DNA of 32,000 nt from Candidatus Saccharimonadota bacterium. GTDB lineage: Bacteria > Patescibacteriota > Saccharimonadia > Saccharimonadales > UBA4665. Location: NCBI GenBank assembly GCA_016699935.1, contig CP064992.1, forward strand, positions 60,001-92,000, read 5' to 3'. The notes beneath the pieces were generated by a model, which was not told the DNA's origin, ran no database searches, and saw nothing but the letters and a program-made list of their open reading frames with translations. The position numbers and the translations under genes are program-made. Below are positions 1,081-27,722 of this stretch, piece by piece. The first letter of the stretch is position 1, and every line of letters begins with the position of its first letter.

Positions 1081-3672
<2,592 letters not shown>

Positions 3673-5523: not shown

Positions 5524-6960
5524 TCACGAATAATTATCCGGCCAATCGTTTTGCATGAGGACGAGGTCGCCCTTAGCCGTAAAACTGGAGAGGTTTAGGT
5601 AGAACTCGAGCGGATCATCCACTATGCGTACTTCACCGCTGTAATCAGTGTCGCTCAGGCCAGCTGCAATGTGCTGTGTTACCGAATTTTTCATAAGTAC
5701 AATCATATCTGGCCGAGCCATGGCTATCATACGGCCTATGCCGCGGTGAATCGCCGGCGAATCTTGACCCTGGTCGACAAGACCTGGTGTCACGTAAATT
5801 TTGCGGTTCGCTGGTAGCATCTTGAGAAGCTCTGTCCCAGCTCGTACACCCTCTACATTGCCATTATACGTGTCGTCTATAATGATAGCGCCACCGAGCG
5901 CGTACGGCTGCATGCGATGTTCAAACGGTTTTGTCTTGGCTATACCACTTGCGACTTGCTTTTCGGTAAGTCCAAGCTGCAAAGCAAACGCCGCCGCAAA
6001 TGCAAGTGGACCAACCATGTGCAAGCCAACCAAACCACTTTTCAGCTTCAGCCGCTTCTTGCCCTTTACCAGCTCGAACGTCGTCCCGTCTAGATTGGTT
6101 GCCACCTTTTGGATGCGCCAGCCAAGTGTCGTGCTACGGCTATATATGCGAAAATCTGGCTGCAAAAAGCCCTGCACCGCATCGGACTCGGCATTGACAT
6201 AAACCTGCTCTTTCGAAACGAAATTGGCAACAGAAAAAATGTCCTCCGCGGCAGCTTGCAGCGTTTTGTACTGGTCGAGATGAGCCGGTGCTAATCCGGT
6301 AATTACTGCGTGCGTTGGACGAACGACGCGGCTGAACAGCGCAACATCTCCAGGACGTCCTTCACCGAACTCGATAATAACCACGTCTTCGTCGCCACTC
6401 AGGCTGCGCGCAAACCGAGCATGAGCTTACGACGTTCATGTTGCCCGGTGTTGCGGCTACGTTTTTAGCTTCGCCAAGCACTGTCGCAAGTAATTCTTTC
6501 ATGGTGGTCTTTCCGTAGCTGCCAGCAATGGCAATCCGCAAACCGGGGTGATTGTGAAATATCTGTTGCGCTGTGAAGGCATTTTTCTCGCGAGGGCGAT
6601 TGTCAGCACCTGTCCTATCACCAATGCCTAGCGCCAGCAAATGCGCCCCAACGACTGGATACGCCACCATCACCGCCGCACCATACCAAAACTACACCTG
6701 GATTGTTAGTGCTCTCAGCTGCAATCATGCACAGTAGCAGCAAACGTAATAAAACTGAGAACGCCAAGCGACACGAATAATTGTATACTCCACGGGCAAT
6801 CCGCGTATTTTCGAGCGTGCGACGGTGCATAACGCGCGAAAATCTTGCGTACGCCAAAACCAGCGCAAAACGGCAATGGCTGGTATTCAACGTTCTGGAG
6901 CATGTATGCCAGTGTGGTACTCGTTGTCGCAATGAATACAGCGCCACCGCACCGCCACAC
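5524..6960 (-). pseudogene. murF: MurF-like Mur ligase paralogue 1 (UDP-MurNAc-tripeptide--D-Ala-D-Ala ligase family), frame-disrupted; 5' limit approximate
   Basis: 6362-6673 carries IAIAGSYGKTT (P-loop) and GNMNV. 5524-6384 carries VITGLAPAHLDQY and IIDDTYNGN plus the C-terminal domain. Upstream pieces in three frames (6674-6960) read ..LAYMLQNVEYQ.., ..RWFWRTQDF.., ..FSRVMHRRTLENTRIARG.. and appear to be an N-terminal extension. Confidence 0.75.
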
Positions 6961-7705
6961 CAGTTACGCACAAGAAAATCCTGGACAATCTGAAGCGTAT
7001 CTTTGGGGCATCGATGTGGATAAAATGCCCTGCGTTTGGTATGACGTGCAGATGGGAACCTTCTATAACGTGTTCGAGTTGTCGGGCGACCGTGAGGGGG
7101 GTGTCTGGTCGTCTTTGTCCCCATACACAAGCAGCGTTGGGGTGCTGATATAGGCAGCGTCTACCTGACATCGTCGCGAACTATCCGCTTGAAGGTTTCC
7201 TGCATGTGTTCGGCGACTAACAAGTCTGAACCGGCCTTTGCGTAGAGCTTGGCGCCGCAGCCGACTACGAACCTTTTTTAGGCAGTGGGACACAACCATT
7301 TTCCCAACTTTGGCCATGACTTTCAAACCTTGATTAGCGCGAGGATTACGCACACCAGCGCTGGCGAGGAGAACGAGTTTATCGGCAACGAACTGACCTT
7401 GACCGATTCCCCGCACGGCAATGGCGCCGCCATTTGAGTGACCGATGACTGCGTATGGCGATACTTCGATTTTTGCAAAAATCTCGTACAAACTGCGTAC
7501 TCGCTGAGACTCCAGGCCTCAGCTGGCTGGCCTGTCTCGCCAAAACCTGGCAAATCCGGGACAATCACATCGTAGTTTTTGCGAGCAACTGCATTGCCGA
7601 GCTCCAGCTGGCCCTGGTATCTCCCCAGCCGTGAAGCAGCAGCACCGACTTGCCTTTTCCGCTGCGACGGTACTGCGTTACGATATCCTGAACAACAACC
7701 TGCAT
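6961..7705 (-). pseudogene. Alpha/beta-fold hydrolase, frame-disrupted (at least 4 fragments); 3' limit approximate
   Basis: The pieces read MQVVVQDIVTQYRRSGKGKSVLLLHGWGD (from the ATG at complement 7703-7705), IVPDLPGFGETG, AVIGHSNGG (GxSxG nucleophile elbow), PTLLVYGDKDDQTPP, and VIPNAGHFIHIDAPK (catalytic His region). They lie in different frames. Confidence 0.75.
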
Positions 7706-7731
7706 ATGCTTCTTGTGTAGCAGGCTTACGC

Positions 7732-9342
7732 TTACAGTTGTCTTGCTTTTTGCGCAGCCACGCCGGGACTCTGCGCGCTTAAGTTTTCTGGCGTCTTTGG
7801 GGTGAGCCAAAAGCTGCTTCACGACTTCTTCGGCAAAACACCATTCTGCAAACCCTTTACAAGAATCACCGCATTTTCCTGCAGGTTTTTCGAACAAACA
7901 CCGCACGCATCAGCATGAGCAAAGCTACGCACCTGGCAGCCCTTAGCTTTGCGCCGGAGCTACCCAGCGTTCTGCGTCGAGTCCAAGAGTCAGAACATAG
8001 TCGAGCTTACTTTGCGTCACAGTATTCGCCTACTTCCTCGTGGGCCTCTTTGGGCATATGCACCCATTTCATTCATGCTCCCAAGATAGCAATGCGCTGT
8101 TCGCGCGTGCGCTGTCATACAGAACATCGAGTGCTGCCTTAACCGCGACGGGCGAGGCATTGTACGTATCATCGATAATCTTTGTGTTCTTTGACGCCGT
8201 CGAGGACCTGCATGCGCCCAGCAAACGGCTCCAACTGGGCGAGCCCTTCCGTATCGCAACCCTGTCAAACCCTAACATTGACGCGACGGTCAGCAGCAGC
8301 GAGCGCACACGTGCTCCCTGCACGCCAAGATACTGTACATGCGCTGTCAGATTGCCAGATGGGAGCGTGATAGAAAGCTCCTGCCCCGCCAAACTCGATT
8401 TTGTAATATGTGCATAGCTTTCAGCCGTGTTATCGCTAAGACTATAGCGCGTGTAATTTTCGCGCTCCACGACAGCTTGTTCGGCGTATCGTCGATATTG
8501 ACTAGCACCTGTTTGCTATAGTCAAAAACCTGTTTTCTTCCGTCGCAACTGCCTGGAGCGAGCGGAAATTTTCCATGTGTTCGGGTGTGATCGCGGTAAG
8601 AACGCATACATCTGGCCGGAGATACGCGAACTGCCGCATTTGGCCCGGGCCGTCTGTGCCGATCTCTACCACAACGACATCGTACGGATACGGCTGCGTA
8701 AGCTGAGCGGCATTTTCGCCAAATAGCTTCATCCAGGCAAAGACGTTAAACAGAGAGGGGTTGTGTTTGCCCAAAAACACGAGCGGCACAGTCACACGGT
8801 CGTTGTAATTGCCCTTTTGGTAGCGAACCCTGGCGCTCGTTCCCAGTAGCTCAGCAATCGCCAAGCTTGGTTCCCGTCTTTCCAACCGAACCGGCAACCG
8901 CAATAACTTTAAAGTTATGCTTCCTGCGCAGTTGCTTGACCTGCCCTTCGAGTATTCGTCCGACAATACTTTTTACCTAATCGCTTTGGCGACAGAATGT
9001 ATGCAACAGCGCGCCATAGCCCAACCAAAGCCGCAAAGCCATAAGCCGTCACAACAGGGTAAGCAAGTAGGATCGCTGCACCAAACGCCCACCAATCCGG
9101 CACTCCCTTGCGCCAGCCAGTCTGTCAAGAGCCAGACACCTCCTGCGATTTGCGCAACCATCACGAACAATAGAGCAGTCACGAGCGACAAATCACGTCT
9201 GTCAATCCCTTTGAGTCGATATGTCTTTTTGTTTGAAAACCATTTGACGCCGCCAGCCAAGCGAATCATCGTGAATACGAAGCGATGCTACAAGCTCCCG
9301 AGCAAGCCCAAGGCTATAGAATCCTCTCAACTGTCTTACCAT
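7732..9342 (-). pseudogene. MurF-like Mur ligase paralogue 2 with hydrophobic N-terminal extension, frame-disrupted (at least 5 fragments); 3' limit uncertain
   Basis: ATG is the complement of 9340-9342, with GAAGGGGG 6 nt upstream. Pieces: an N-terminal extension with TM-like segments (8915-9269); KVIAVAGSVGKT (own translation, about 8875-8915); KGNYNDRVTVPLVFLG and LTAITPEHMENF (8502-8966); IIDDTYNASPVAVKAALDVL (8069-8470); ILGSMNEMG; ..AVILVKG..AEEVVKQLLAHPKDA (7706-7906). Confidence 0.7.
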
Positions 9343-11816: not shown

Positions 11817-12142
11817 TATGATTACCCCTTTCCATATACCACTATGCGCTATTCTGCTGAGAAATAACTATGAGTTATATTACAAATCTTGAAAAACACG
11901 TATTTCGCACTTTGAGCTCATGTGCATGTTCTCCTCGAAGCACGTAAGGAGCTGTACTGAGGGACAGCGACTGGTGTCGTGAGCTGCACAGGAAAAGAAA
12001 AGTTTTACATTTTCTTTTCTGAGCAGCGAGAAAAGAGGCAAAGCCGATGTACTGAAGAGGAAACATGTGGAGGAGTTTGGAGAAGCAAGCAGAGTTCTGG
12101 CTTTGTCGGAAGCGGGCTGGCTGGTGAGATAGGCGTGAAGAA

Positions 12143-12185
12143 GAAAAAAATTCACCCCTCATCCCCGAGGAGATACAATGAGGGC
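12143..12185 (-). terminator. Intrinsic terminator after the methyltransferase gene
   Basis: Minus strand: CCCTCAT-(15-nt loop)-ATGAGGG followed by GTGAATTTTTTT. The plus-strand A-run is at 12143-12150. Confidence 0.65.
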
Positions 12186-12241
12186 GGTATTTACTGTGAG
12201 ATGGTACTTGAACCTTCGACAGATGTTTGCCAATGAAGTGA

Positions 12242-13067
12242 TCATTTGGTGATTCTTACTGTGATATAGCGAATATAGTCTTTGCGCCAGCCGTTTAGAG
12301 CAATGTGTGCTATGAGAGTATTGGGATGCGCATGCTCTTTACCAAGCAACTTCAATAAATGGTAGGGTATCCATGATATTGCATAAAAAAGCTTAATTAC
12401 GGGCAATACTGAGGTACCTTCATTCGCAATATTAAAGCTAGAGACGCCAAGTTTTGGCAGCAACTTATCATAATAATCATGAGTGATGGTATCGAAACCT
12501 GGGCAATTTGTCTTCTCGGCAATAGTATGGATTGCTCGGGCAATATCTGGAGGCACTTGGTCAAGTGGTGCGATTGAGTAGTCAAATATTGCAATTCGAC
12601 CACCGGGCTTTAGGACGCGCAAGAATTCTCTGATAGTCGCCTCGGGGTTAGAGCTATGGGTAAACGTTTCTCGCATGCAAGTGAATACGACATCGAATGT
12701 TTCATCTTCGAAAGGTAGCGAGTTGTAGTCTGCTATCTGAAAGTCTACATTCTTGTTTCTGCCCAGTCTTTTTGCTAAAGCGATACTACGTGGCACTAGA
12801 TCGATTCCGCTTATTCTCGCATGATGCTTTTCTGCAAGCCGAAGTGAAGCTCGCCCCTGACCGCAACCTGCATCTAGAACACGGTTGCCGCTACGTATAT
12901 TTCCGCAACCTTGGCCAAGTGGTTTATCGTCGCTTCTGCCGCGCGTGTCATGTTTAAGTACTTCTTATCTTTGTACCACCCGAAATGCCTGTGACCACCA
13001 AGAAGTGCTCGGTAGCCCAACCGTGAAGCCAACCGCTCGTAATATCTAATCGTCAAATCTTTGACAT
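12242..13067 (-). pseudogene. Class I SAM-dependent methyltransferase (Methyltransf_11-like), frame-disrupted as read
   Basis: 12242-12796 carries the Rossmann-fold core (..FDVVF.., VLKPGGRIAIFDY). Own translation across about 12800-12875 gives NRVLDAGCGQG (motif I), out of frame with the 12874-13110 piece (YYERLASRLGYRALLGGHRHFGWY). The probable true start is the ATG at complement 13065-13067, recovered by a 1-nt correction at the A3 run 13055-13057. The gene is visibly more AT-rich than its neighbours. Confidence 0.7.
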
Positions 13068-13282
13068 ACTCTATAGCAGATATTATCAGATATAAAATAA
13101 AAAGACCCAATGCCGCTAGGTCTCATGACTTGATTTGATAGAGTCGGTGAGTACAGATTATAGATTAATAGCATGGCAACATACGAGTGCAGCGAACGCT
13201 CGCGGATAAGCAAAGAATTTTTCGAATTTCCCGAGCTATTCTAATCCTCTAGGGCGGAAAATCTCCTCATTCGAGCTTCGTG

Positions 13283-13306
13283 AAAACCCGACATAATTTG
13301 GTCGGG
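13283..13306 (-). terminator. Hairpin plus U-tract immediately downstream of the duplicated tmRNA 3' end
   Basis: Minus strand: CCCGAC-caaattat-GTCGGG followed by TTTTCA. It lies 10 nt after repeat copy A. Confidence 0.5.
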
Positions 13307-13315
13307 TGCTTTCTG

Positions 13316-13334
13316 TGGTGGAGACGCCGGATAC
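13316..13334 (-). repeat. Second copy of the tmRNA 3' end (17 of 19 nt identical), att-like
   Basis: The minus strand reads GTATCCGGCGTCTCCACCA, against GTATCCGGCAGCTCCACCA at 13501-13519. Similarity stops abruptly 5' of GTATCC, that is, inside the T-loop. Confidence 0.7.
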
Positions 13335-13457
13335 CCGTTCTGCTCTTTAAGCTCACTTGTCCAGAACGTTCACGATTGCAAAACCAGTTTGCATCGGATC
13401 CTTCTTTGCGACCCGCCACCGGCGGGTCTCACTCTCAAGGCGATATCCTCAATCTTC

Positions 13458-13498
13458 TATAAGAAGATAAACACCCCATCAAACGATGAGGTGTTTAT
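13458..13498 (-). terminator. Intrinsic terminator of ssrA
   Basis: 14-bp stem (13467-13480 pairs with 13485-13498). One position is a G-U pair only on the minus strand. The loop is GTTT, followed by CTTCTTATA. It starts 2 nt after the tmRNA CCA. Confidence 0.7.
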
Positions 13499-13500
13499 CA

Positions 13501-13880
13501 TGGTGGAGCTGCCGGATACTGCCTCCGGTCCGCTAGATTTTCAGTCAGAATACTACAGGTATAGTCTATTTTAATGTCTTAACATTCGGGTTTAAAAACA
13601 GACAAACAAACCGAATGAGCAATCCTAGTCTTAGCACCTGAGCTGGATAAACTCAAGTGAGTTGTCCAGATATATATAACGCTACTTTGGCTATCTGAAA
13701 TCGTCAAAGGCGTTGCCTAAAATTAATTAGGCTGTTTGGAAAGCAAGCTTAGGTGCGAACACGCTAGCTAGTCTTTCCATGAATGATGTTTTTGCATCTA
13801 TTCTGGTTTGCCTATAACGCTGACAAGCGACCTGCATTCATGACCGAAAGGTACCAACGTCGAGCTTAAAATTCAGCCCC
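13501..13880 (-). ncRNA. ssrA: tmRNA (SsrA), about 380 nt, CCA encoded
   Basis: The 5' end reads GGGGCTGAATTTTAAGCTCGACG... and the 3' end reads ...CCGGA GGCAGTA TCCGG CAGCTCC ACCA. The acceptor strands GGGGCUG/CAGCUCC-ACCA are identical to E. coli tmRNA, including G3:U70. The 5-7-5-7-4 geometry of the 3' end is also the same. A candidate tag ORF (complement 13795-13727) follows AAUAGAU: GCA... encoding AKTSFMERLASVFAPKLAFQTA*. Confidence 0.8.
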
Positions 13881-13890
13881 ATGTAGAGCT

Positions 13891-13920
13891 ATTTTAGCAT
13901 AAATGTAAGCGCTTTGTAAA
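13891..13920 (-). promoter_or_regulatory. Candidate ssrA promoter: TTTACA, 18-nt spacer, TAAAAT
   Basis: TAAAAT is the complement of 13891-13896, 10 nt upstream of the mature 5' G. TTTACA is the complement of 13915-13920. The promoter lies inside the 3' end of the ksgA remnant ORF. Confidence 0.5.
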
Positions 13921-14144
13921 GATCATGCCAATGCGTAAGTGCAAGGGCTTGGGCACGGTTTTTGGGGTCGATGTTTGCTTTGTCGAGAAGCGCTTTGGTT
14001 TCGTCTTTGCTCAGGTGCATCCCTGCGCTGAGTGAATTATGGAGGGTTTTGCGCTTTTGGCTAAAGCCTGCGCGAACGATGAAAAATTGTTTAGTATCGA
14101 CATCTGTGAAAAGTGGGTTTTTTTCGAATGTTAGCTCCAATACC

Positions 14145-14273
14145 TGGCTATCCACCTTTGGTGGTGGTGGTGTGAAAAGTTTGCTTTGCCGGTACAACGA
14201 CAACCAGCGAAACTTGGCAATAAAACTGCGCGCTGACGCTCAGTATCGACATTTGGCCAGGCCTAGCAGTGAC
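14145..14273. repeat. Direct repeat copy 1 (ksgA-internal segment), near-identical to 16173-16294
   Basis: By-eye alignment shows a 61-nt perfect block (14204-14264), two substitutions and two small indels (ggtggtggtggtg vs ggtggcggcg; aagtttgcttt vs aagcttt). Flanking ksgA sequence is much more diverged. Confidence 0.85.
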
Positions 14274-14559
14274 GTGTTTGGCTTTTTGCCAACAGTTAGA
14301 AAGTCTATTCATAAACCACATCAGGAAACACTCATTACCTATGCATTAAGCACGCTGAAATACGGCTTTGTTGTCGTGGCTTTGCAAAGCTATAGCCTTG
14401 TTACGGTATTGTTCCCGCTCAGCATAGCTATCCTGAACGGTTTATTCGTCATTCTATTATTGGTACGTAGGCGACAAGTAACTTTGTAGTTTTTGGTTGG
14501 CTTTTAAACTGTCGAAATATGGAACAAGGCTCATAAACGTAAGATGGGTCTTTTTCTTT

Positions 14560-15768
14560 CTAGGAAGCGGCCATTGGGTTTTCGTGGCGGGCTTCGATGG
14601 CTAAAACGTCTTTTGGCACTTTGTAAAATGCCGTGAATATTAGGGCACCTAGCAATATCATGCCTGCGCCTACCACCACAGGAACGCTCACGCCCATAGT
14701 AGCCACATACCCACCTATGATGGCCGGTATGGCCTGTGCCAGCGCCTGCACACTTGCCTCTATACCCAGGACTTCTCCCTGTTGCTTCGGACCCGCCGTT
14801 AGGCTGACAAGCGCGCCGGAGTTGGCGATAAACTGCCCATTGAAAAGTGCAATAAATGGCGCCACCAGAAGCAGCTGGGTTGTGTTGGTCGGCAGTAGTT
14901 GCAAAAGTAGTGCGCCCGAAAGGCCAAACATAGCCACCCGCACGATATTGTGTGTCAGAAATCGCTTGGCTGTAAAAGGAACAATTAGTGCCTGGCTTAT
15001 AGCGATACATATACCTATGTAGGCAAAGAAATCGCCGACATTATTCGTTTTGAAGCCCAGTTTCTGAATAAGAAGTATCTGAAAAAAGGTCGTAAAGAAG
15101 GTAAAACCACCACAGAAGAAAAATTCGGCCGTAAAGATCATTCGCAGCCGCGGACTAGTAGCAGCCCGACGAATATTATCGAGAGATTTATTCCATACAA
15201 GCTTAATTTTTTTATCAATATGAGCGTGTGTCTCTGGTAATAAAGCTAGCAGCAGAGCTGTGTTGACCAGGCTCAATATAGCTGTAAACCAAAAAGGCGT
15301 AGCGGTTGTAAACCAGTGCGGCGTATCAAACAATCCAAAAAATGTCACATCTGGAGTAGCCAAACGCGCCCCAATATAGGGCCCAAAAACAAAGCCAAGC
15401 CCAAACATACCACCTATCAGACCGAAGTTCCGCGCCCGATGCTCTGGCGGCGTTACATCGGCAATGACCGCACGAGCCACACTAATGTTGCCGCCAGTTA
15501 TGCCGTCTAGACCACGCGCTGCAAACAAGAGCGGGATGTTTTTGGTCATAATGGCTATGGCAAACAGTGCGTAACCTATAGCCGTGCCAAAAAGGCTAAA
15601 GCCCAAAACTGGTTTACGGCCATAACGATCAGACATTTGGCCAAGTATGGGTGTCGCGAGAAACTGCATCAGCGGGAAAATCGCTACCAACCATCCGAGC
15701 AAAATGAGCGAAGTAGAGAAACTATAACCAGCTGGCTCAAAAATCTTAAAGATAAGCTGAGGCAGCAC
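14560..15768 (-). CDS. MFS transporter, DHA1/TetA-like drug:H+ antiporter family (N-terminal TM1 out of frame upstream)
   Basis: 402-aa ORF with motif A, GQMSDRYGRKPV, and about 11 TM segments. Own translation upstream gives ATG (complement 15884-15886) MSTIKSKVKSVAERNEKRAMPIVALTVF.., which joins ..VVGILIPVLPQL after a 1-nt correction at the A6 run 15812-15817. The full gene is therefore probably 14560-15886. Confidence 0.85.
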   Translation of the reverse strand: MLPQLIFKIFEPAGYSFSTSLILLGWLVAIFPLMQFLATPILGQMSDRYGRKPVLGFSLFGTAIGYALFAIAIMTKNIPLLFAARGLDGITGGNISVARAVIADVTPPEHRARNFGLIGGMFGLGFVFGPYIGARLATPDVTFFGLFDTPHWFTTATPFWFTAILSLVNTALLLALLPETHAHIDKKIKLVWNKSLDNIRRAATSPRLRMIFTAEFFFCGGFTFFTTFFQILLIQKLGFKTNNVGDFFAYIGICIAISQALIVPFTAKRFLTHNIVRVAMFGLSGALLLQLLPTNTTQLLLVAPFIALFNGQFIANSGALVSLTAGPKQQGEVLGIEASVQALAQAIPAIIGGYVATMGVSVPVVVGAGMILLGALIFTAFYKVPKDVLAIEARHENPMAAS

Positions 15769-15919
15769 TGGTATGAGTATGCCGACGACTCTAGCACATC
15801 CAAAAAACTGTCAAAGCCACAATGGGCATGGCACGTTTTTCGTTTCGTTCAGCAACACTCTTTACTTTACTTTTTATAGTGGACATATCGTTTTATACTA
15901 CGTAGATTTTCTTTTTAAG

Positions 15920-16731
15920 TCAATCTAGAGCTAGCTCCCTATACAGGCTATACCACTGATCTAGGCTAAGCGCTTGAGCTCTTGTTTGAAATGGTATATC
16001 TACTCGCTCGAGTTTTTCCCTGACAATCGATTTTTCTATCTGTAGACCGGCGCTCAAGGAGTTTTCGAGCGTTTTGCGTTTTTGGCTGAAGCCGGCTTTG
16101 ACGAGCTGAAAGAAAACTTTTGCATCAATGTTCTTGAAAAGCGGCTGCTGACGGTACTGCAAAATCAAAACTTGGCTATCCACCTTTGGTGGCGGCGTGA
16201 AAAGCTTTGCCGGTACAACGACACCCAGCGAAACTTGGCAATAAAACTGCGCGCTGACGCTCAGTATCGACATTTGGCCAGGCCTGGCAGTGACCCGTTC
16301 GGCCACTTCTTTTTGTACCAGTATGGCGGCCGTGCTGAAATGGTTGGGGCTTTCGCACAGAACCCGAATGAGATTGCTTGTCAGATAGTATGGGATATTG
16401 GCAACAACTTTGAAGCCCCCTGGTAGCTGTTGTAAGTTAAACCGTAAAATATCCCCTCCACCACAGTAATATTACCCCCACCCTCCCTTTTGGGAGGACT
16501 GTCCTCCCAAAGCCGGTCTGTGAGGGTCTGAGCGAGGTTTGTATCGAACTCGACGGCGGTGACGTGAGCGCCACGCTGGAGAAGCTTGCGGGTCAAAGTA
16601 CCAAGACCAGGGCCCACTTCGAGCACGTCGTCACCTGGCTGTACGTCTGCGGCATCACAGATGGCTTCGAGCGTCACATCATCATACAACCAATGCTGAC
16701 CAAGTGATTTCTTTGGAACTGTTTCTTTCAC
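15920..16731 (-). pseudogene. rsmA: 16S rRNA (adenine1518/1519-N6)-dimethyltransferase RsmA/KsgA, one frameshift as read
   Basis: 16381-16758 carries PKKSLGQHWL and VLEVGPGLGTLT (SAM motif I). 15920-16306 carries VTARPGQMSILSV, FTPPPKVDS and AGFSQKRKTL. The frames rejoin (..VEGDILRFNLQQLPGGFKVVANIPYYLTSNLIRVL..) with a 1-nt correction at the C4 run 16453-16456. The probable start is a GTG at complement 16729-16731. Confidence 0.88.
16173..16294. repeat. Direct repeat copy 2 (inside the full-length rsmA)
   Basis: See 14145-14273. The two copies are 2028 nt apart, start to start. Confidence 0.85.
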
Positions 16732-16802
16732 ACGATCATTGTACCTTACTAAATACACACTCCCTATACCGCCGCACCGACCCCGCTCCTTATTCTTTCG
16801 TT

Positions 16803-16838
16803 TTCCAATAACCGAGACGTACGTCTTGGTTATTGGAA
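16803..16838. promoter_or_regulatory. 36-nt near-perfect palindrome (18-bp arms) between the G5-domain gene and rsmA
   Basis: ttccaataaccgagacgt|acgtcttggttattggaa has one G-T position. No U-tract follows on the transcribed (minus) strand, so it is not a classical terminator. Confidence 0.6.
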
Positions 16839-16959
16839 TGTTTAATAAGAGTATTCGGTACGGGTTGGCGACGAGGAGAGATGAAGAGAGATTTTACCGG
16901 TATCTTTACGTCGAACTCGGGTTATGCAACGTCGTGTTTTGTCAGTTGGCTTATGAAAC

Positions 16960-18195
16960 CTACCACCAGTGGTGACTGAGCCAAAAATTGTACGCAGCGC
17001 CCCAGCTTCCGTAACGACCGATGGCATATCCGCTAAAAACTGCGTTTGGCAAACGGCATTTGTCTGCCAGTTGGCGCACGCATTAATGACCTTGGCGCCA
17101 GGACAGGCCTGACCCAAACCAGCACAGCCTCCAGCATTGGTTGCAGCCGCATTCCAGCGTGATTCTCGCGAAAATATATAGTCGACATACGCAAAGTCAC
17201 CCTGGCTAATCCCCGCAGCGACCATGACTGCCTGTTTATCGTCTGGGATATTCACCGTGTTCCCCTTCGCCACCACACGCTCTACTGGCTGTACGGTAAC
17301 TACCGACTGGAGCAGTTTGCGGCTGACTTCCTCACCATTCTGCACGTTAATTTCATATGTCTGCACGCGCTTACCCGGCTACCCTCCTGACGAACAGCCT
17401 GGCTGCCAAAAGACAGCGACATATCGATGATGCTTTTTACTGGCGCCGGGATATCTTCGTTTAGCGTAATAACCTGCAGACCATTTCTTACTACCACAAC
17501 CTGCATATTCGCACTGAGCGGTGATTCGGCAGACGGTTTCACGGTGTCGTCCGCACGAACGGTAATACGCTTTTCTTTCAGCAACTCACCGACTGTTTTT
17601 GCCTGCGTTCGTAGCGTCAGCGGCTGCCCGTACAATGTCAGGGTGAGCGGCACTGCTCGGTTCACGATAACTCGATTACCAAGGCTCTTTTGTAATACAA
17701 AGTTATCGGTCGGCATAACATCAACCGTATCTTCGCCGTACAAATCGATTCCCATCGCAGCCACCATACTGCGAGGTGTTGCCGCTGCACTTTTCGCGTA
17801 GGTTACCTGCGACCCGTCATGTAGCGCAATAGGTACTGACCGGTAAACATTTACAAGAAAGTTGTCCTGGGCGATTAATTCATCCGCAGCAGGCTCGACG
17901 CGGTCCCCTGGAGCTAGTGTGATATCGAGCTTTTTGAGTAAATCTCCGACCGTTTTGGCATCGGTTGGGATGGTTGATTTTGACCGTCATAGGAAATAAT
18001 CGCGATACTTGTATCCCTAGCGACATAGTCTGCTACCACTCCCTGGCGGTTGGCGTACCACAACCCTCCACCGCTCACTGCCAGCAGAACAACAAAGAGT
18101 ATCAGCGGCAAGCCTGCGGGGTGATGATGGACGCGTTGAGCCAGGCGCTTACTAGCTTCATACGACCTTCTGATTGCATGTTTTACCCTCTGCAT
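16960..18195 (-). pseudogene. DUF348/G5-domain cell-wall hydrolase (RpfB/YabE-like), frame-disrupted as read
   Basis: 17914-18195 is an N-terminal TM anchor. 17300-17767 plus own translation of 17768-17975 gives two DUF348-like repeats (TVGDLLKKLDITL.., TVGELLKEKRITV..). 16842-17366 has a G5-like segment and FSRESRWNAAATNAGGCAGLGQ. The true C-terminus ..YAIGRYGSWGAAYNFWLSHHWW* is out of frame and ends at complement 16960-16962. One junction is at the T4 run 17978-17981. Confidence 0.7.
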
Positions 18196-18235
18196 ACCTA
18201 CCCTAGTATACCACCGAGAGTTAGAGGTCCTGACG

Positions 18236-20419
18236 CTAGAGTTTTTCGAGGCGGGCGAAGGCGGTGTTTAGCTTTTTTAGACCTTTGCCTTTGAAATAAA
18301 TCGCAGCCATGTCACCGTCTGTCTCTACAACCGTTCCCACACCAAATACATCGTGCCTGACTTGGTCGCCTTCGTGGAGTTCGGGGATATAACGTGGTTC
18401 ATCCGAGGTTAAACTGCTCGTATCGTTCATCTGTTCTTCTGGTGCAAAATCATCAAATGAGGTGAAATCAACTCTCCCAAAACTAGGCATAATGGTTGTC
18501 TCCTCAACATGCTCACCAGCAATTTCACCTAAAAACCGGCTGGGAATGTTGTGCTGCGCGCTACCATACAGCGACCGTGCCGAGGCATACAGCATGTACA
18601 GATCTTCGCGGGCTCGTGTCATACCGACATAGCACAAACGCCGCTCTTCCTCCATTTCGCTCTGGTCGTACAGAGCGCGGCTGTGCGGCAAGATAGACTC
18701 CTCAAGCCCAACCATGAACACCACTGGGAATTCGAGCCCCTTCGCACTATGCAGCGTCATGAGCGTAACGGCATTGTCACCGAGATTCGCCGCATCGAGA
18801 TCAGAAATAAGAGCGACTTCCTCAAGAAAGCTACTGAGTCCTTCATCGTGGTAGCCCTGGGCCACACCGAAAAGCTCGCGGACATTCTCCTGGCGACTTT
18901 CACCTTGCGGTGTTTTATCGTCCAGATACGCAAGGTAGTTAAGCCGTTTCACCAGACTTTCGACTAAAATATCGGGCGGAAGTTCGTCGAGCTGCGCCCG
19001 CAGCGAAGCAAGAATACCCGCAAGGTCCATAAGCCCTTTGCGCGCTTTAGCCGTCAACGTGTCGCACTCGCCAACACGGTCAAGCGCTTCGCTCAAGCGT
19101 AGTCGTTCCACTAGCATCCAACCTATAAAGTTACCGAGACTAACCGCGCCGACACCCCTGCCCGGCACATTCACAATCCGCTCGAAACTGGCGCGATCAT
19201 CAGGCTGGTAGAGCAACCGTAGGTAGGCGATAAGGTCTTTGATTTCTTTCCGGTCATAGAAGCGTACACCACCGACAACACGATAGGGTAAACCATACTG
19301 CACCATAACTTCTTCTATAGAGCGGCTCTGGGCATTGGTGCGGTATAGGACAGCGAAATCTTTGTACTGCCGCAGTCCGGTGTCCACAGCCGTGCGGATG
19401 GTACGCATGATGGTTTCGGCTTCCGCTCGCTCGGTCATAACCTGCATAAGCTGAACACGGCGACCATCACCCTCAGCTGTCCACAGACGCTTATCACTCC
19501 GCTGCGTATTTTTGGTTACAACGCCGTGAGCAGCATTCAGAATATGGCCGGTACTGCGATAGTTTTGCTCGAGCTTTATTACAGCGCAGTCTTTATAGTC
19601 CTTTTCGAACCGTAAAATATTGCGAAAATCTGCGCCCCTAAACGAATATACCGATTGCCAATCGTCACCTACGACCGCTAGGTTACGATGCTTGTTGACT
19701 AAAAGTTTGACTAGTTGGTACTGAGCGGCATTGGTGTCCTGGTATTCGTCGATCATGATGTGCGTAAAACGGGTGCGCCACTTCTCTTGGACTTCTTTAT
19801 GCGTTTCGAGCAGCTGGACGGTGCGCCAAATGAGGTCATCGAAATCAAGCGCCACGGCGTCATGTAGCGCCGCCTGATACAGCGGGTAGACACGGGCAAC
19901 GACTTCACCGGTAGGACTTTTTACAGTTTCACGGTACTCACCTGGTCCTATCATTTCGTTTTTAGCACTAGAAATGTAGCTCGCGACCGTTCGAGCTGGA
20001 AATGATTTTTCATCGACCTGGAGTTCTTTGCATATGCGCTTGACCGTTGCACGCCGATCGTCTTCGTCGAAAATAACGTAGCTCGATGGTATGCCAAGGT
20101 ATTCGCCGTCCATTCGAAGAAGTTTTACGCATATGGAGTGAAAAGTTCCCATCCAGGGCATAAACCGCCGGTCGTCGGCACTCTGGCCGAGCAGCCGTGC
20201 GACTCGCTCGCGCATCTCGCGGGCAGCTTTGTTCGTGAATGTCACCGCGAGAATGCTATGCGGTGTCGCCTGACGCGTCGCGATGAGGTAGGCAATCCGG
20301 TGCGTCAGTGTCTTGGTTTTGCCACTCCCCGCCCCGGCTTGAATAAGCAACGGCCCCTCCGTCGTCACCACCGCCCTCCGCTGCTCCGGATTCAACCCTC
20401 TGAGTAACTCTTCTTGCAC
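18236..20419 (-). CDS. pcrA: ATP-dependent DNA helicase PcrA/UvrD (SF1)
   Basis: Intact 727-aa ORF with a GTG start. It contains AGAGSGKT (Walker A), DEYQDTN (motif II), VGDDWQSVYSFRGA, LEQNYRS and TLHSAKGLEF, plus a C-terminal Tudor-like tail. Confidence 0.93.
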   Translation of the reverse strand: MQEELLRGLNPEQRRAVVTTEGPLLIQAGAGSGKTKTLTHRIAYLIATRQATPHSILAVTFTNKAAREMRERVARLLGQSADDRRFMPWMGTFHSICVKLLRMDGEYLGIPSSYVIFDEDDRRATVKRICKELQVDEKSFPARTVASYISSAKNEMIGPGEYRETVKSPTGEVVARVYPLYQAALHDAVALDFDDLIWRTVQLLETHKEVQEKWRTRFTHIMIDEYQDTNAAQYQLVKLLVNKHRNLAVVGDDWQSVYSFRGADFRNILRFEKDYKDCAVIKLEQNYRSTGHILNAAHGVVTKNTQRSDKRLWTAEGDGRRVQLMQVMTERAEAETIMRTIRTAVDTGLRQYKDFAVLYRTNAQSRSIEEVMVQYGLPYRVVGGVRFYDRKEIKDLIAYLRLLYQPDDRASFERIVNVPGRGVGAVSLGNFIGWMLVERLRLSEALDRVGECDTLTAKARKGLMDLAGILASLRAQLDELPPDILVESLVKRLNYLAYLDDKTPQGESRQENVRELFGVAQGYHDEGLSSFLEEVALISDLDAANLGDNAVTLMTLHSAKGLEFPVVFMVGLEESILPHSRALYDQSEMEEERRLCYVGMTRAREDLYMLYASARSLYGSAQHNIPSRFLGEIAGEHVEETTIMPSFGRVDFTSFDDFAPEEQMNDTSSLTSDEPRYIPELHEGDQVRHDVFGVGTVVETDGDMAAIYFKGKGLKKLNTAFARLEKL

Positions 20420-20425
20420 CTATCT

Positions 20426-20434
20426 ATTCTACCA
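20426..20434 (-). promoter_or_regulatory. Extended -10 element TGGTAGAAT, 6 nt upstream of the pcrA GTG
   Basis: Read directly on the minus strand as ..ctcTGGTAGAATagatagGTG. This implies a leaderless or near-leaderless mRNA. Confidence 0.45.
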
Positions 20435-20575
20435 GAGTAAGCTACGAAATAATCCGTAAAGTCTGTATCTGTTAAAGGCCAAACTTTTTGATTCTTTTGG
20501 TTCATTTTACTAAACTACCCAGTACTAAAAAACATCTTACCGGTTTTCGCGGGAGGAGAAGTTGGTAGATACGGT

Positions 20576-21284
20576 TCAGTTGAATAATGAGGTGTGAGGG
20601 ATGGATTCTAGGTTGAGGACTTCCATGTCAAGGAGTACGTTGAGCACGACGATTGCTGCGAGCAGAATGAATACGGTGATGAGAACAGCTTTCTGGCGGC
20701 GGTGCCTGACTTGGCCGATGGGTAAAAAATAGGTGCCAGCTGTTATATGGCGGTCGATCTCCTGGTTTTTGCCACACTAGGGTCTGCTTTATTGGTTTCA
20801 GCTGGAGGCACCTCTGACGATTCGGATTTGCTCTCTGCATCTTGCGCATTTTCGGCCTCATCAGAAACATCATGTTTTGGTGGCGTAACCTTGATAGCAG
20901 CGGTGCTCTGTGCGGGCTGTTCTGCGCCTAGTGAACTCGGGGTCACCTGGTCCGGCTCAATCTTTTGGTTCTCGGGACTTTCCTCGGGGACACTCTCTTT
21001 TTGGCTGGTTCAGGTGGTGTTTCAGCGGGTTGATCTGGGACGGAGACGATACCCTTATCATCGGTCGTGAGCAGTGGCGCACCTTGCGGAAAATCGCTGG
21101 GTTGAAGGGCAGCTTCACCAGACGATTTTTCTTCGCCCGCAATAACCGCGTCCGGGGTGAGCATGGGGTCTTGGATCATATATGGCCGGTTCGTGACGAG
21201 AACCGGGCGTCCGGATGGCGTTGGTGGCGTATCCCCAGGATGCACGGCATCCATGACCTTGATTAGTTTTTTAGCGGTCGCCAT
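20576..21284 (-). pseudogene. Hypothetical low-complexity (P/E/S/A-rich) protein with C-terminal TM anchor, frame-disrupted; in frame with tpiA as read
   Basis: It starts MATAKKLIKVMDAVHPGD.. (ATG at complement 21282-21284). It continues through 20743-20946 and an out-of-frame tail, ..QEIDRHITAGTYFLPIGQVRHRRQKAVLITVFILLAAIVVLNVLL..*, ending at complement 20576-20578. The junctions are at short A and C runs. Confidence 0.45.
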
Positions 21285-22066
21285 TGTTTTTCTTTCAGTT
21301 TGGAGCTGGTGAGCAACTTTCACAATTTCTGAAAACTGGTGGTAGTTGAGGCTGGCCGCTCCAACGAGCACGCCGTCACAGTCTGGCAGCTCCAGATAGC
21401 TGCGGACATCGTGTTCATTGACGCTGCCGCCATACAGTACGCGCATAGCTTTGGCGGCGCGTTCGCCGTACAGTTCTTTGACTTGATCACGCATATACCG
21501 GATCATTTCCTGTGCGTCGTGGGGTTTGGCGATGATACCATCAGCCGTACTGATAGCCCAAACAGGTTCATACGTCAGTACAACCTTTTCGATATCTTTA
21601 CTTGTGAGATTCATAAGAGCCGTGGTGAGCTGATCGTGAATGACTCGCCGAGCCTCACCTTCATCACGTTCATGTTTTGTCTCGCCTATGCAAATTATGG
21701 GCTCAATATCGTTGCGGATTGCAGCCTGCACCTTGTCACGCACAACATCTAGCGTGTCACCCGCATTGAGTCGCCGCCAAGAGTGACCAACTATAGCGTA
21801 GTGCACAAGGTCACCCAGCATGGCGAAGCTGACTTCTCCCGTGCAAGGCCCTTCGTCTTTATAGAATGCGTCTTGAGCGGCGAGTCGGAACTGGCGGCGG
21901 TCTATCTCGACACTGAGCGGCTGTAGGGCAAGCATGCTCGGCGCAAGCACGACCTCAACGTCACGGTGATGACTGATGCGTTCACCAAGTCGATGCACCA
22001 GTAAACTTGCCTGATGCACACTGAGGTGCATTTTCCAGTTGCCGACGATGAGAAGTTTTTATCCAT
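21285..22066 (-). pseudogene. tpiA: Triose-phosphate isomerase; N-terminal frameshift, and no stop codon before the next ORF as read
   Basis: Recognisable segments are ..VLAPS.., AIVGHSWRR, ICIGET and TYEPVWAI (catalytic Glu region), LYGGSV and VLVGAASL. The true N-terminus MDKKLLIVGNWKMH is recovered from the ATG at complement 22064-22066 by a 1-nt correction at the T5 run 22056-22060. Confidence 0.85.
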
Positions 22067-22107
22067 AGTGGTTATGCCTTATTATAAATTTTCATTTTAC
22101 ATTTTAC

Positions 22108-22189
22108 AATTTTCAGAAAAATTATAGAGGAACAATTTTTCAAAATGCGGGAATTTGAATCTTTGGTAATTGAAAATTTTCTGAAAATT
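22108..22189. promoter_or_regulatory. 13-nt perfect inverted repeat (AATTTTCAGAAAA / TTTTCTGAAAATT) separated by 56 nt in the pgk-tpiA spacer
   Basis: The arms are at 22108-22120 and 22177-22189. The context is AT-rich and also contains the tandem attttac x2 and a TATAAT on the minus strand. Confidence 0.5.
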
Positions 22190-22212
22190 AGGTGTTGAAA
22201 AATGTGAATTGG

Positions 22213-23508
22213 TCATTTGTTTTCCAATGCTTCAACACCTGGTAATTTGCGGCCGCTCATAAGTTCGAGGCTAGCACCACCGCCGGTTGAAACGTGGTCA
22301 AAACTAGCAGTCAAGCCACGATCTTGCACAAATCCGACCGTGTCACCACCGCCCACAATACTAAATGGGCGGTTACCAAATTGACCGAGCATGGCTTCGG
22401 TCAGCAGCTCAGTACCTTGAGCTGTTGGACCAATTGGCCCAAGCAAGCTCTTCGTTTCCGTAACGCCCATAGTGCCATTCCAGACAACTGTTTCAGCCAG
22501 CTGGAGCAAGCCAGCGATAAACGCACCGCTGAAGGGGCCAATATCGAGTAGCATTTCGTCCTCGCCGACCTGGCTGGCTTCATGCAACGGGCGCCGAGGA
22601 TAGGCCTCTATTTCGGCGATAACATGCGCACTCCAATCGACGATGCGTGTCGGCGCGGCCGAGTCAATTTTGCTTGCCACAACACCATCTTGCGGCAGGT
22701 AGAAAACAAAGTCTCGTTCTTTTTATCTCTGTCACTCGGTGCATGATTTCCTTGGCGAGCGGTAAATCTTCGGGCTCAATTTTGCTCTTGCCCACCCTAA
22801 GACCAGTGGCGTGCAGGAAGGTGTTTGCCATAGCACCACCCACGACGACAGCATCGGCAATATCGAGAAAACGCTGCAATATTTCTATCTTATCAGCTAT
22901 TTTCGCCCCGCCAATTACCGCCACCAGCGGTCGCTTCGGGTTTTCCATGGCAGTGGTAATAGTATCGACTTCTTTTTCAAGCAAGAGTCCAGCAGCAGCC
23001 GGCAGGTGGTGCGTAATTGCTTCGGTACTAGCATGGGCGCGGTGAACAACACCGAACCCGTCTTGGACAAATATATCAGCCAAACTCGCTAGCTGCTTGG
23101 CAAAATCGTCACTGTTTGCCTCTTCTTCTTGATAAAAACGGAGATTTTCGAGTAGCAGTACCTGACCAGGTTGTAAGCTTTTGCTGCTTTTTGAGCACGT
23201 TCGCCCACACAATCCGGGACGAACTCCACCTCTGTTCCAAGTAGCTTCCCAAGTGATTTGGCTACCGGAAAAAGGCTGTATTTGGGGTCTGGTTTGCCAT
23301 CTGGGCGGCCAAGGTGCGAACACAATATCAAAGCAGCACCGTGGTCTAGCAGATAGCGCAGGGTTGGCAGGCTCTGTTGCAAGCGGTAGTCATCACTTAT
23401 TTCACCCTTGTCATCGAGTGGCACATTATAATCAGCCCTCACAAGAACCTTTTTGCCAGACACATCGATATCTTTGATCGTTTTTTTGTAAAACTCATTG
23501 CCCACCAC
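22213..23508 (-). pseudogene. pgk: Phosphoglycerate kinase, frame-disrupted as read (3 fragments)
   Basis: 23089-23508 carries [12 protein letters not shown] and [11 protein letters not shown]. 22664-23323 carries [28 protein letters not shown] and AVIGGAKIADKI. 22213-22680 carries WNGTMGV and STGGGASLE. Confidence 0.92.
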
Positions 23509-23580
23509 AGACTAATAATGAAATGCTTATGCCTTTATTGTACATTCGAACATCAAAATTCCAAATTCGAAATTCGTTTA

Positions 23581-25017
23581 TCAGTCTAGCTGTCGAATCT
23601 TGATGGTGTCTGTCGCGCCGACAACGCCCGGGTATTGTCCGCTCACCAGCATAACAATATCGCCCTTTTCAAAAACACGCTCTTTCAACAGGAAATCGGT
23701 AATCTTTTGAGCAGCCTGGGCGCTGACGGGACGTACATAGCTCTTGACGTCATAGACGATAGCGAGTTGCTGAGCAGTGCGAACACTGTCGGTTACCGCA
23801 ATGATGGGCACATCAGGACGCTCCGAGGCGATGGTCAGCACAGTCGCACCCGTCTTCGTTTCGGCGATAATAGCCTTGGCATGAATACTCGTCGCCATAC
23901 CAATAACGGCACGACTAATCGCGAGCTGACGCGTAGGGTCTTTTTGCCTGACCTTTAAACGTGACTCGAACGACACCATGTTGCTGCGAGTAGTTAATGA
24001 TACGCTTCATTATTTTCACCGCTTCATGCGGGTATTTGCCCATGGCGGTTTCGTCGCTCAGCATGACACAGTCAGCGCCCAGGTACACTGCCGTTGCGAC
24101 ATCTGATACCTCAGCGCGGGATGGTTCGGGTGATTCGGTCATGCTGGCGAGCATCTGTGTCGCCACAATGGTCGGTTTGCCGTACTGAAGCCCCATACTG
24201 ATGATCTGTCGCTGGGCGACCGGACGACTTCGGGGTTCACCTCGACCGCCATATCACCGCGTGCGACCATGGCAACATCGGTAGCTTGCATGATTTCATT
24301 GATGTTATCTATGGCAAGTTTGGTTTCGAGTTTGGCGATGATACGAGCGTCATAGCCGAGGTTTTTCATCATCTTACGCATATTTTCGATATCAGCGGCC
24401 GACTGAATAAAGCTCATGGCGACATAGTCAATGTCCTGTGTGCTGCCATAGGCGAGATCCGCTTTGTCTTTTTCGGTGATAACATCACCGCCAAAGTCAG
24501 TGTCTGGTAGGTTGATGCCTTTGCGTTTGAGCAAAATACCATCATTATGCGCCTCGCAGTAGACAATGCCGTTTTTAACGCTCGTAATCTCGGTGCGAAC
24601 TTTACCGTCAAAGATGTACAGTCGCTCACCTCGCTTCACCTTTGTACTCAGGTCGTACTGGGTCGGGATGATGCCCGTTTCAAGCCAGTCCACCTCATAG
24701 CCAAGCTTGAGCGTTTGGCCTTTTCTGACCGTGATGATATCGTCGAACTCGCCAAGGCGAATTTTGGGACCCTGCAAATCCTGGATGATGGCAACCGGTT
24801 TTTTTAGCTCCCGGCTGGCTTTGCGAATCCATTTGATATGCTGCGACTTTTGCGGGTGGTCGCCGTGGCTGAAATTGAGCCTGAGACCATTGGCGCCGTC
24901 TAGTATAAGTTGCTTGATTGCGGCATAGCTGTCTGTGGCAGGCCCAACTGTGGCGATAATCTTGGTACGTTTGTAATGCCTCAAAGGCACATGGTGCTCG
25001 TGATGTGAATCTATCAT
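23581..25017 (-). pseudogene. pyk: Pyruvate kinase, frame-disrupted as read (3 fragments)
   Basis: 24139-25017 carries RTKIIATVGPA, LRLNFSHG, IAKLET and [10 protein letters not shown]. 23915-24196 carries [22 protein letters not shown] and [10 protein letters not shown]. 23581-23979 is the C-terminal domain. Confidence 0.92.
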
Positions 25018-25252
25018 ATTGCTTATAGTCTACACCACTTTCGCTCTGTGATAAATATCACTACCAAAAGATTCCTTGCCCATAGGTGGCAAAGGGACAC
25101 AATGTGGCTAATCGTCATGAAAGATGCGCACAGAGGAGTTAGTGGACCGCATAATATAGTCCGTCAGCGACAGAGCAGATTGGGTACCCAGAAATCGACA
25201 ATACCAATACCGCCCAAACGTCAACGGGGAGAGGAGTTATGAGATTTGTTGC

Positions 25253-27631: not shown

Positions 27632-27722
27632 TTGGTTGCCCACCTTTCTAGACTAGTAAGATTTTTTACTTTTTTATTGTTATGCTTTTACTATACCCCC
27701 GTTCCCCCACTTTTCAAAATAT

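Follow-up and report, generated by a model that had tools for sequence, protein, structure and literature searches.

Integrative elements such as phage 21 and e14, which enter icd, integrate within the 3′ portion of their target gene and bring a replacement for the displaced end, and islands that target tRNA genes or the transfer-messenger RNA (tmRNA) gene are of the same kind. A comparable geometry is present in the 32-kb window examined here (the whole stretch of DNA analysed, 32,000 nt), which comes from a GenBank metagenome-assembled genome (MAG) named 'Candidatus Saccharibacteria bacterium' (locus tags IPL68_*). In this window ksgA (rsmA), the gene for the 16S rRNA adenine dimethyltransferase, is followed by a gene for a major facilitator superfamily (MFS) transporter and then by a second, orphan ksgA 3′ end that precedes the tmRNA gene, ssrA. 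In our judgement, there is about an even chance that this arrangement is a one-off recombination scar, left by a homology-driven insertion of DNA from a related species into ksgA, and not a new mobile element.

The locus resembles phage 21 and e14-type elements in its direct repeats, its restored target gene, and its displaced original end. It differs from them in that there is no integrase, there are no phage or island genes, the unit is only 2 kb, the repeated block is ragged, and the arrangement occurs a single time. Compared with site-specific integrative elements more generally, the locus has bracketing direct repeats and a restored target gene, whereas it has no recombinase, no recurrence or empty site among approximately 146 related loci, and no short, sharply bounded core of identity.

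A second class of described events is insertion by homology-facilitated illegitimate recombination (HFIR) or of Campbell type, as known from Acinetobacter, Streptococcus pneumoniae, and Pseudomonas stutzeri, where foreign DNA is known to enter competent bacteria through homology on one side and an illegitimate join on the other (PMC3240628, PMC5361080). The ksgA locus shares with these events a homologous anchor and the lack of an element-encoded recombinase, and its two junctions may likewise be divided between homologous and unrelated sequence. Cultivated Saccharibacteria are naturally competent and integrate DNA by homologous recombination (PMC10633639), an ability that the uncultured lineage of the window may share. 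In contrast to the described cases, the anchor in ksgA is a short conserved stretch in a strongly diverged gene, it is duplicated, and the event is known here from sequence alone.

A third precedent is the C-terminal displacement described for Rhs, CdiA, and type VI secretion system effectors (Jackson et al. 2009; Kirchberger et al. 2017, PMC5361080). There, as at ksgA, a conserved 5′ part gains a new 3′ end together with a downstream gene, and the old 3′ end survives further downstream as an orphan with a short piece of the conserved core. However, ksgA is a housekeeping gene for an rRNA methyltransferase (RrnaAD family) with an MFS gene downstream. It lacks an immunity gene and an array of orphans, and relatives show no further case. 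The likely value of the ksgA orphan also differs, in that it would lie in the tmRNA promoter that the orphan carries.

Anatomy of the duplicated ksgA segment

All genes discussed are encoded on the minus strand. The full-length ksgA gene spans 15920-16758 and is obtained by joining two open reading frames (ORFs; 16758..16381 and 16306..15920), since the gene is broken in the assembly by a 1-nt frameshift at a G run near 16455-16459. The joined protein of 279 amino acids (aa) matches Pfam RrnaAD (PF00398) over 16-277 with an E-value of 7.2e-55 (186 bits, cut-off 24), and a comparison with 5.8 billion proteins gave a top homologue of 74% identity. In GenBank, the C-terminal ORF of the gene is listed as the hypothetical protein IPL68_00500. 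Within this gene lies the first copy of the repeated segment (block B, 16166-16303, encoding VTARPGQMSILSVSAQFYCQVSLGVVVPAKLFTPPPKVDSQV), which is continuous with the half of ksgA that encodes the S-adenosylmethionine (SAM)-binding part of the protein and is followed by the resident 3′ end, here called C1 (15920-16165).

The MFS gene (about 15887-14560; Pfam MFS_1, 7e-42) encodes a transporter of the DHA1, tetracycline-resistance-like type, annotated as 'MFS transporter' in GenBank (QQS18578.1). Its ATG lies near 15887, approximately 32 nt past the ksgA stop codon. A clean ORF covers 15768-14560, and the 5′ end of the gene (15769-15887) is disrupted by frameshifts in the assembly; the proteins of relatives in the same cluster are 440 aa long. 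Beyond the MFS gene is a 277-nt spacer (14283-14559), then the second copy of block B (14138-14282), and finally the orphan 3′ end, here called C2 (13889-14137). The fragment formed by the second copy and C2 (14282-13889) has no N-terminal half. It is nevertheless recognized by the RrnaAD profile at positions 175-261 (40.9 bits, cut-off 24; 1.7e-10), and its stop codon lies 8 nt before the tmRNA gene. C1 and C2 are 51% identical at the protein level.

Several of these features had been put forward in the first-pass annotation, made from the letters of the window and their ORFs. This annotation reported a ksgA segment of about 125 nt present twice in direct orientation (14145-14273 and 16173-16294), with a 61-nt perfect block, two 3′ ends about half identical in protein, an upstream copy continuous with the SAM-binding half and soon followed by the MFS gene, and a downstream copy without an N-terminal half. 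The present analysis bears out all of these points, with slightly wider limits for the two copies.

The frame of C2 is intact to its stop codon, and the encoded peptide retains 18 of the 19 residues that are conserved at 90% or more in 64 orthologues. This preservation indicates that C2 was part of a working gene until recently. In the public annotation, C2 is the hypothetical protein IPL68_00485 (QQS18576.1) and the second copy of block B is the hypothetical protein IPL68_00490 (QQS18577.1). These two entries can be corrected, as both are pieces of a displaced ksgA end.

A repeat search of the window aligns 14183-14282 with 16204-16303 at 95% identity over 100 nt, and 14138-14167 with 16166-16195 at 90%. 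The longest exact match between the copies is 61 nt (14204-14264 = 16225-16285), and a core tract of the block is identical at 80 of 81 positions. In the orientation of the gene, 14 of the 19 nt on the 5′ side of the exact run match. On the 3′ side there is one mismatch followed by 19 identical nt, beyond which two insertions, of 4 nt and 3 nt, set the fragment copy apart from the copy in the full gene, a detail absent from the first-pass annotation. The insertions are followed by a stretch coding for PPPKVDSQ, which is conserved in all species, and past this stretch the DNA identity between the copies drops to approximately 40-73% per 30-nt window. Weaker homology to ksgA extends 5′ of the second copy to about 14300. 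Between the window ksgA and 67 orthologous ksgA genes, the longest exact run is 29 nt and the median is 14. The 61-nt run therefore points to a recent common origin of the two copies rather than to conservation. With its length of approximately 80-140 nt and two ragged ends, the tract looks like a product of recombination or gene conversion and not like the short core of an attachment site.

An old tandem duplication of the 3′ part of ksgA within the genome, followed by divergence of the copies, would account for their direct orientation. The divergence does not fit such a history, because identity is 95-100% in block B and only about 40-73% per 30-nt window of DNA (51% in protein) in the coding sequence next to it, and this step change at the 3′ edge of B led us to reject duplication followed by divergence. 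An old pseudogene would also not be expected to keep an open frame and all but one of 19 conserved residues, and the bootstrap trees described below never join C1 and C2 as sole sisters. We therefore regard a tandem duplication as extremely improbable.

Affinities of the two ksgA ends

The question of which 3′ end is native was approached by comparing 119 full-length KsgA homologues with the window region by region, in segments of 40-140 aa. Homologues that are nearest to the window in the N-terminal part (78-83% identity) are more like C2 than C1. Those nearest in C1 (66-72%) have N-terminal parts that are only 67-73% identical to the window, with B parts at 76-90%. Accordingly, identity in the N-terminal part correlates negatively with the difference between C1 and C2 identity (C1 minus C2; Spearman rho −0.38, p 2e-5), whereas identity in block B correlates positively with it (rho +0.36, p 5e-5), in both cases across 119 homologues that are phylogenetically non-independent. 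Diagnostic sites follow the same division, with the N-terminal part at 4:1 and C2 at 4:0 for the nearest group, and C1 at 1:3 against that group. In these comparisons the N-terminal part pairs with C2 and block B pairs with C1, so that the full gene looks like a chimera of the N-terminal part with B-C1, and the fragment like a reciprocal chimera of B with C2.

The first-pass annotation had called for separate phylogenies of the two ends. In neighbour-joining trees built from the C region (76 aa), none of 300 bootstrap replicates joins C1 and C2 as sole sisters, and the two lean towards different groups, at weak resolution. On this evidence and their protein identity of 51%, C1 and C2 are not recent duplicates. 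Dating by synonymous divergence (dS) is restricted to block B, as synonymous sites are saturated against every relative. From the pairings above we infer the polarity of the event: the orphan end C2 looks like the older partner of the ksgA N-terminal part.

The flanking genes show that the locus is a mosaic. The core genes upstream (18236-27643) are sister to those of two related loci, L001 and L002 (related loci are referred to by such handles where they need to be distinguished), with identities of 96% for PPDK, 90-92% for pyruvate kinase (PK), 89-91% for phosphoglycerate kinase (PGK), and 90% for UvrD (range 88-96%). Neither of these nearest loci has an MFS gene. In contrast, p93, DUF348, and G5 (16842-18195) are of the type found in L003, L004, and L005, to which they are 60-89% identical versus 42-57% to L001 and L002. 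The corresponding breakpoint in ancestry lies near the stop codon of UvrD, at about 18200-18236. The window MFS is also closest to this second group, with 91% identity to the ksgA-adjacent MFS of L005 and 77% to those of L003 and L004. Core genes point to L001 and L002 and the tmRNA gene to L002 and L110, while the stretch from p93 through DUF348/G5 to the MFS gene points to L003-L005. A compositional signal of foreign DNA was sought in GC content and in GC content at third codon positions (GC3), and none was found.

The tmRNA gene and its putative promoter

The tmRNA gene (13501-13880) matches Rfam RF00023 over the full model (1-374) with 65.5 bits (threshold 47), although ARAGORN gave no call for it at these positions. 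Its nearest relatives are the tmRNA genes of L002 (80%) and L110 (78%). Directly after the gene is a terminator-like hairpin (13466-13499) with a 15-bp stem and a T-rich tail.

The first-pass annotation had placed the ssrA promoter in the 3′ end of the downstream ksgA copy, and a promoter-like site is indeed located there. The sequence TTTACA-18-TAAAAT, preceded by an upstream TG, resembles a sigma-70 promoter with 10 of 12 matches and is the best such site in 13300-16900. It occupies 13891-13920, within the last 30 nt and the last codons of C2, and ends 10 nt before the tmRNA gene. The stretch from the −10 element to +1 is common to the window and to the region upstream of the L002 tmRNA gene. 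A ksgA remnant upstream of tmRNA was sought in the insert-bearing relatives L002, L006, and L007, and only this −10 to +1 stretch is shared. C2 has probably been retained because it supplies the −35 and −10 elements from which the tmRNA gene would be transcribed.

The surroundings of the tmRNA gene hold several further features. An element of approximately 120 nt (13318-13437, minus strand), located 65 nt downstream of the tmRNA gene, ends in GTATCCGGCGTCTCCACCA, which is very like the tmRNA 3′ end GTATCCGGCAGCTCCACCA. It is not recognized by Rfam, and its sole homologue (78% over approximately 100 nt) is at 10832-10929 of L001, directly after ksgA on the opposite strand and beside prophage-like genes that include an ORF resembling a terminase small subunit. 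This element may be a tmRNA 3′ end displaced by a past ssrA-integrating element. In L002, an ORF of 299 aa (13303-14202, minus strand) overlaps the tmRNA 3′ end with its last codons. In our reading, the protein resembles the C-terminal portion of large serine recombinases, and L002 may accordingly harbour an integrative element that targets the tmRNA gene. The frameshifted gene for a class I SAM-dependent methyltransferase (12242-13110) lies in a stretch of low GC content (0.43), and it is without a counterpart in approximately 146 related loci except for a protein of L007 that matches weakly, at 27% identity. At the corresponding position (12242-13110 and 11890-12241), L003 and L004 have only the tmRNA gene beside DUF2267. 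The methyltransferase gene may have been carried by an ssrA-linked island that has since been lost.

Gene order in related Saccharibacteria

With KsgA as the query against genomes and the tmRNA 5′ end as the query against metagenomes, approximately 140 related loci were collected. No second piece of ksgA is present in these Saccharibacteria loci (up to 146 compared), and the duplication is not the universal arrangement among relatives that the first-pass annotation had named as contrary to its proposal. Short KsgA C-terminal proteins from other samples were considered as further orphan ends and were rejected as contig-end truncations or frameshift splits.

Among the 68 metagenome loci that hold both a ksgA end and a tmRNA gene, ksgA is followed by tmRNA on the same strand in 64, and the two are convergent in the other four. 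The gap between the same-strand genes is 200 nt or less in 11 loci, and ksgA is directly adjacent to tmRNA in L009 and L010. In five of the 64 same-strand loci, an MFS gene lies between the two. Overall, MFS genes between ksgA and tmRNA occur in scattered lineages (L007, L053, L056, L057, and L119). In L007 the MFS gene is approximately 0.5 kb downstream of ksgA, is 64% identical to the window MFS, and is not accompanied by a fragment. ksgA is immediately followed by MFS, again with no fragment, in L003, L004, L005, L020, and L021, where the MFS proteins are 77-91% identical to that of the window. The adjacency of ksgA and MFS without a fragment in several species indicates that the MFS gene is a regular occupant of the locus and not novel cargo. 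Judging from these gene orders, the gap between ksgA and tmRNA is a variable locus across Saccharibacteria, with the MFS gene among its recurrent occupants. A comparison of ksgA-ssrA synteny with and without the MFS gene, as proposed in the first-pass annotation, is thereby available. The prevailing same-strand order of ksgA and tmRNA, together with the pairing of the N-terminal part of ksgA with C2, supports the view given there that the downstream copy marks an ancestral ksgA-ssrA junction.

Other observations concern the contents and limits of related loci. L144, from a lineage with a C1-like KsgA end, carries a gene for a TetR-family regulator after ksgA (5712-6101), a further case of the varied content downstream of ksgA. 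Contigs assembled from short-read metagenomes often end in ksgA near the 5′ part of block B (L015, L016, L019, L065, L076, and L124). Of 16 true contig ends within ksgA, five fall at aa 149-172, and L015 and L016, although assembled from two samples, both begin (position 1) at an identical base of the gene. In this small sample, the breaks may reflect a frequent recombination boundary between strains or a shared conserved k-mer.

The arrangement of the window could also represent a small integrative cassette of approximately 2.02 kb, composed of a B copy, C1, the MFS gene, and the spacer, which targets ksgA by site-specific recombination and is mobilized in trans by a recombinase encoded elsewhere, or is what remains of a larger element that lost its integrase. 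The direct repeats bracket the unit, the proximal copy restores the target gene, and the displaced end is at the far side, as in an attL/attR geometry. The scattered lineages in which MFS sits between ksgA and tmRNA would also fit. To this extent the proposal of the first-pass annotation, an element that integrates into the 3′ part of a conserved gene and brings its own replacement end, agrees with the geometry. The evidence for a mobile integrative element is otherwise negative. The first-pass annotation recognized no integrase or transposase in the 2-kb unit, and no integrase, transposase, or other recombinase was found there or in the whole 32-kb window (Pfam and PHROGs searches on ORFs in and around the unit, Pfam on the other large ORFs). 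The spacer between the MFS gene and the fragment, which had been suggested as a place to look for recombinase remnants, yields only six-frame pieces of fewer than 75 aa, none recognizable as a recombinase, and the one piece that was profile-scanned, the longest plus-strand ORF, gave nothing significant (PHROGs).

Nothing similar to this spacer is present in the rest of the window or in 146 related loci. Neither another duplication nor a recombinase-adjacent ksgA piece occurs in these loci or on viral contigs, and a search of the latter for a ksgA 3′ piece like that of Saccharibacteria returned only a single irrelevant, 29%-identical gene. Furthermore, the block of identity is long and ragged instead of a short core, the MFS gene is a regular occupant, and MFS identities roughly track KsgA N-terminal identities, as would be expected under vertical descent. 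We consider an integrative cassette to be very unlikely.

Proposed homology-driven insertion and its alternatives

The absence of a recombinase, the long and ragged block B, and the natural competence of the group together favour homology-driven insertion, and recombination with DNA of a related organism, listed as an alternative in the first-pass annotation, is now the preferred reading. It would begin with an ancestral lineage in which ksgA lay directly upstream of tmRNA, with the tmRNA promoter within the last ksgA codons. DNA from a related member of the Saccharibacteria would then have recombined into the conserved middle of ksgA, bringing the 3′ 45% of the gene (B and C1), the MFS gene, and the 277 nt of the spacer. 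The join would have been of RecA type and not driven by an integrase, either as a Campbell-like single crossover with a repair or conversion tract, or as HFIR after natural transformation. As a result, ksgA would have remained whole, composed of the native N-terminal part and the incoming B and C1, the MFS gene would have been gained, and the native C2 would have been shifted 2 kb downstream. In the process, the displaced piece would have received a copy of approximately 80-140 nt of the incoming B at its 5′ edge. The two apparent reciprocal chimeras are what a crossover with a conversion tract between an incoming B-C1-MFS-spacer and a native N-B-C2 would be expected to produce. At the second junction, the spacer has no homology to ksgA, and a possible CAAAA(A)G microhomology at approximately 14296-14302, after a gap of 5-6 nt, is only suggestive.

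Several observations weigh against this reading. The affinities of the gene regions rest on segments of 40-140 aa and on homologues that are not phylogenetically independent. A donor lineage was not found, as the best match to C1 (72%) and the best match to the MFS (91%) are in different lineages and the spacer is an orphan sequence. The lineages nearest in C1 (L144 and L145) have no MFS gene after ksgA, and L005, with the closest MFS, has a C2-like ksgA end, so the incoming piece would itself have to be a mosaic. Because p93, DUF348/G5, and MFS share an affinity to L003-L005, the import may have been larger (approximately 4.4 kb) or the history more complex. Moreover, no close N-terminal relative has ksgA abutting tmRNA (the gap in L002 is 2.1 kb), and tmRNA is on the opposite strand in L110, L003, and L004, as well as in the more distant L014 and L015. 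Exact look-ups of the UvrD, MFS, DUF2267, and fragment-ORF proteins gave neither a second assembly of the species nor an empty site or circle junction. An exact 25-mer from block B is likewise absent from metagenome contigs. As the species is otherwise unsampled, this absence, like that of the duplication and the spacer from related loci and viral contigs, is weak evidence.

Some of the same observations can be accommodated by a reversed polarity, in which N-B-C1-MFS is native, as in L003-L005, and the block holding the fragment, the tmRNA gene, the tmRNA-like remnant, and the methyltransferase gene (about 14300 to 11890) is imported. The import would have come from a lineage in which ksgA is followed by tmRNA, it would have replaced a native tmRNA gene on the opposite strand, and a later patch of gene conversion from the resident ksgA would have homogenized block B. 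The order and types of p93, DUF348, G5, ksgA, and MFS match L003-L005, where tmRNA is inverted beside DUF2267. Compared with L003 and L004, the window differs solely in the interval from the MFS gene to DUF2267, with homology returning at approximately 11886, and the stretch 13317-11890, with the methyltransferase gene and its flanks, has no counterpart in related loci. The tmRNA neighbourhood also appears to be an integration hot spot in relatives, given the serine-recombinase-like ORF on the tmRNA 3′ end of L002 and the prophage-like genes of L001. However, a reversed polarity requires an extra event, namely conversion between sequences that are approximately 25-40% diverged. It also requires a pre-existing chimera of the N-terminal part with B-C1 and leaves the association of the N-terminal part with C2 as a coincidence. 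In addition, the closest counterparts of the tmRNA gene and the remnant are in L002, L110, and L001, the nearest species by core genes, which fits a native origin. Overall, we hold the reversed polarity to be unlikely.

The quality of the assembly bears on these questions as well. ORFs of essential genes, including those for leucyl-tRNA synthetase (LeuRS), PGK (in three pieces), pyruvate kinase, and Mur ligases, are each broken into two or three parts by frameshifts (for example in 1081-3672, 22213-23508, 23581-25017, and 5524-8966). Such splitting of essential genes is a pattern typical of uncorrected long-read assemblies. Since essential genes are frameshifted throughout the window, the assembly is evidently rich in indels, and decay of ksgA or the MFS gene should not be read from their frameshifts. 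For the same reason, any pseudogene call in the IPL68_* genome is unsafe.

An assembly of this kind raises the prospect that two co-occurring haplotypes or species were fused through a long read that was chimeric or bridged them. The error-rich sequence, the affinities of the locus that are mixed between two species groups, and the lack of an independent assembly of the species in the collections searched are all compatible with the chimera of haplotypes that the first-pass annotation had raised. Block B, on the other hand, is not explained by a chimera, because one made from two genomes would still need a recent shared tract of 80-140 nt between otherwise saturated sequences. The junction between spacer and fragment is not at a shared sequence and would not be made by a graph-based switch of haplotypes. 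The two B copies also differ by substitutions and two indels, which indicates that they were assembled separately. An artefact of assembly is very unlikely in our view.

A broader version of homology-driven insertion treats the ksgA-tmRNA gap as a recombination hot spot of Saccharibacteria, at which cassettes such as the MFS gene would be exchanged between species by natural transformation with the conserved ksgA core and tmRNA as homology arms. The genome described here would then be an unresolved intermediate, in which a C-terminal displacement like that of toxins has occurred and the orphan has been kept as the driver of tmRNA. This proposal is tentative, and we regard it as unlikely.

Other features of the window

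Upstream of ksgA are the genes for UvrD (20419-18236) and a frameshifted DUF348/G5 protein (17767-16842). In L002 (5010-8414) and L005 (165-3437), the UvrD match is in two blocks approximately 1 kb apart (residues 1-256 and 255-727), which suggests that uvrD is interrupted in both relatives by an intein or an inserted gene that is absent from the window. Between the G5 gene and ksgA is a palindrome with a 16-bp stem (16803-16838), to which positions 5081-5119 of L005 are 92% identical in both orientations. It is a conserved hairpin and probably serves as the terminator of the upstream gene. Downstream of the methyltransferase gene are DUF2267 (11816-11454) and a tRNA-Ala gene (11083-11007).

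Implications

The ksgA locus reveals no new type of mobile element and no new biochemistry, and the finding rests on one error-rich MAG. If the favoured reading of a homology-driven insertion is true, the locus would be a clean natural example of gene gain in competent, recombinase-poor ultrasmall bacteria. It would show how an insertion anchored by homology can take place inside an essential gene, with the end of this gene swapped and the old end kept as a carrier of the promoter for its neighbour.

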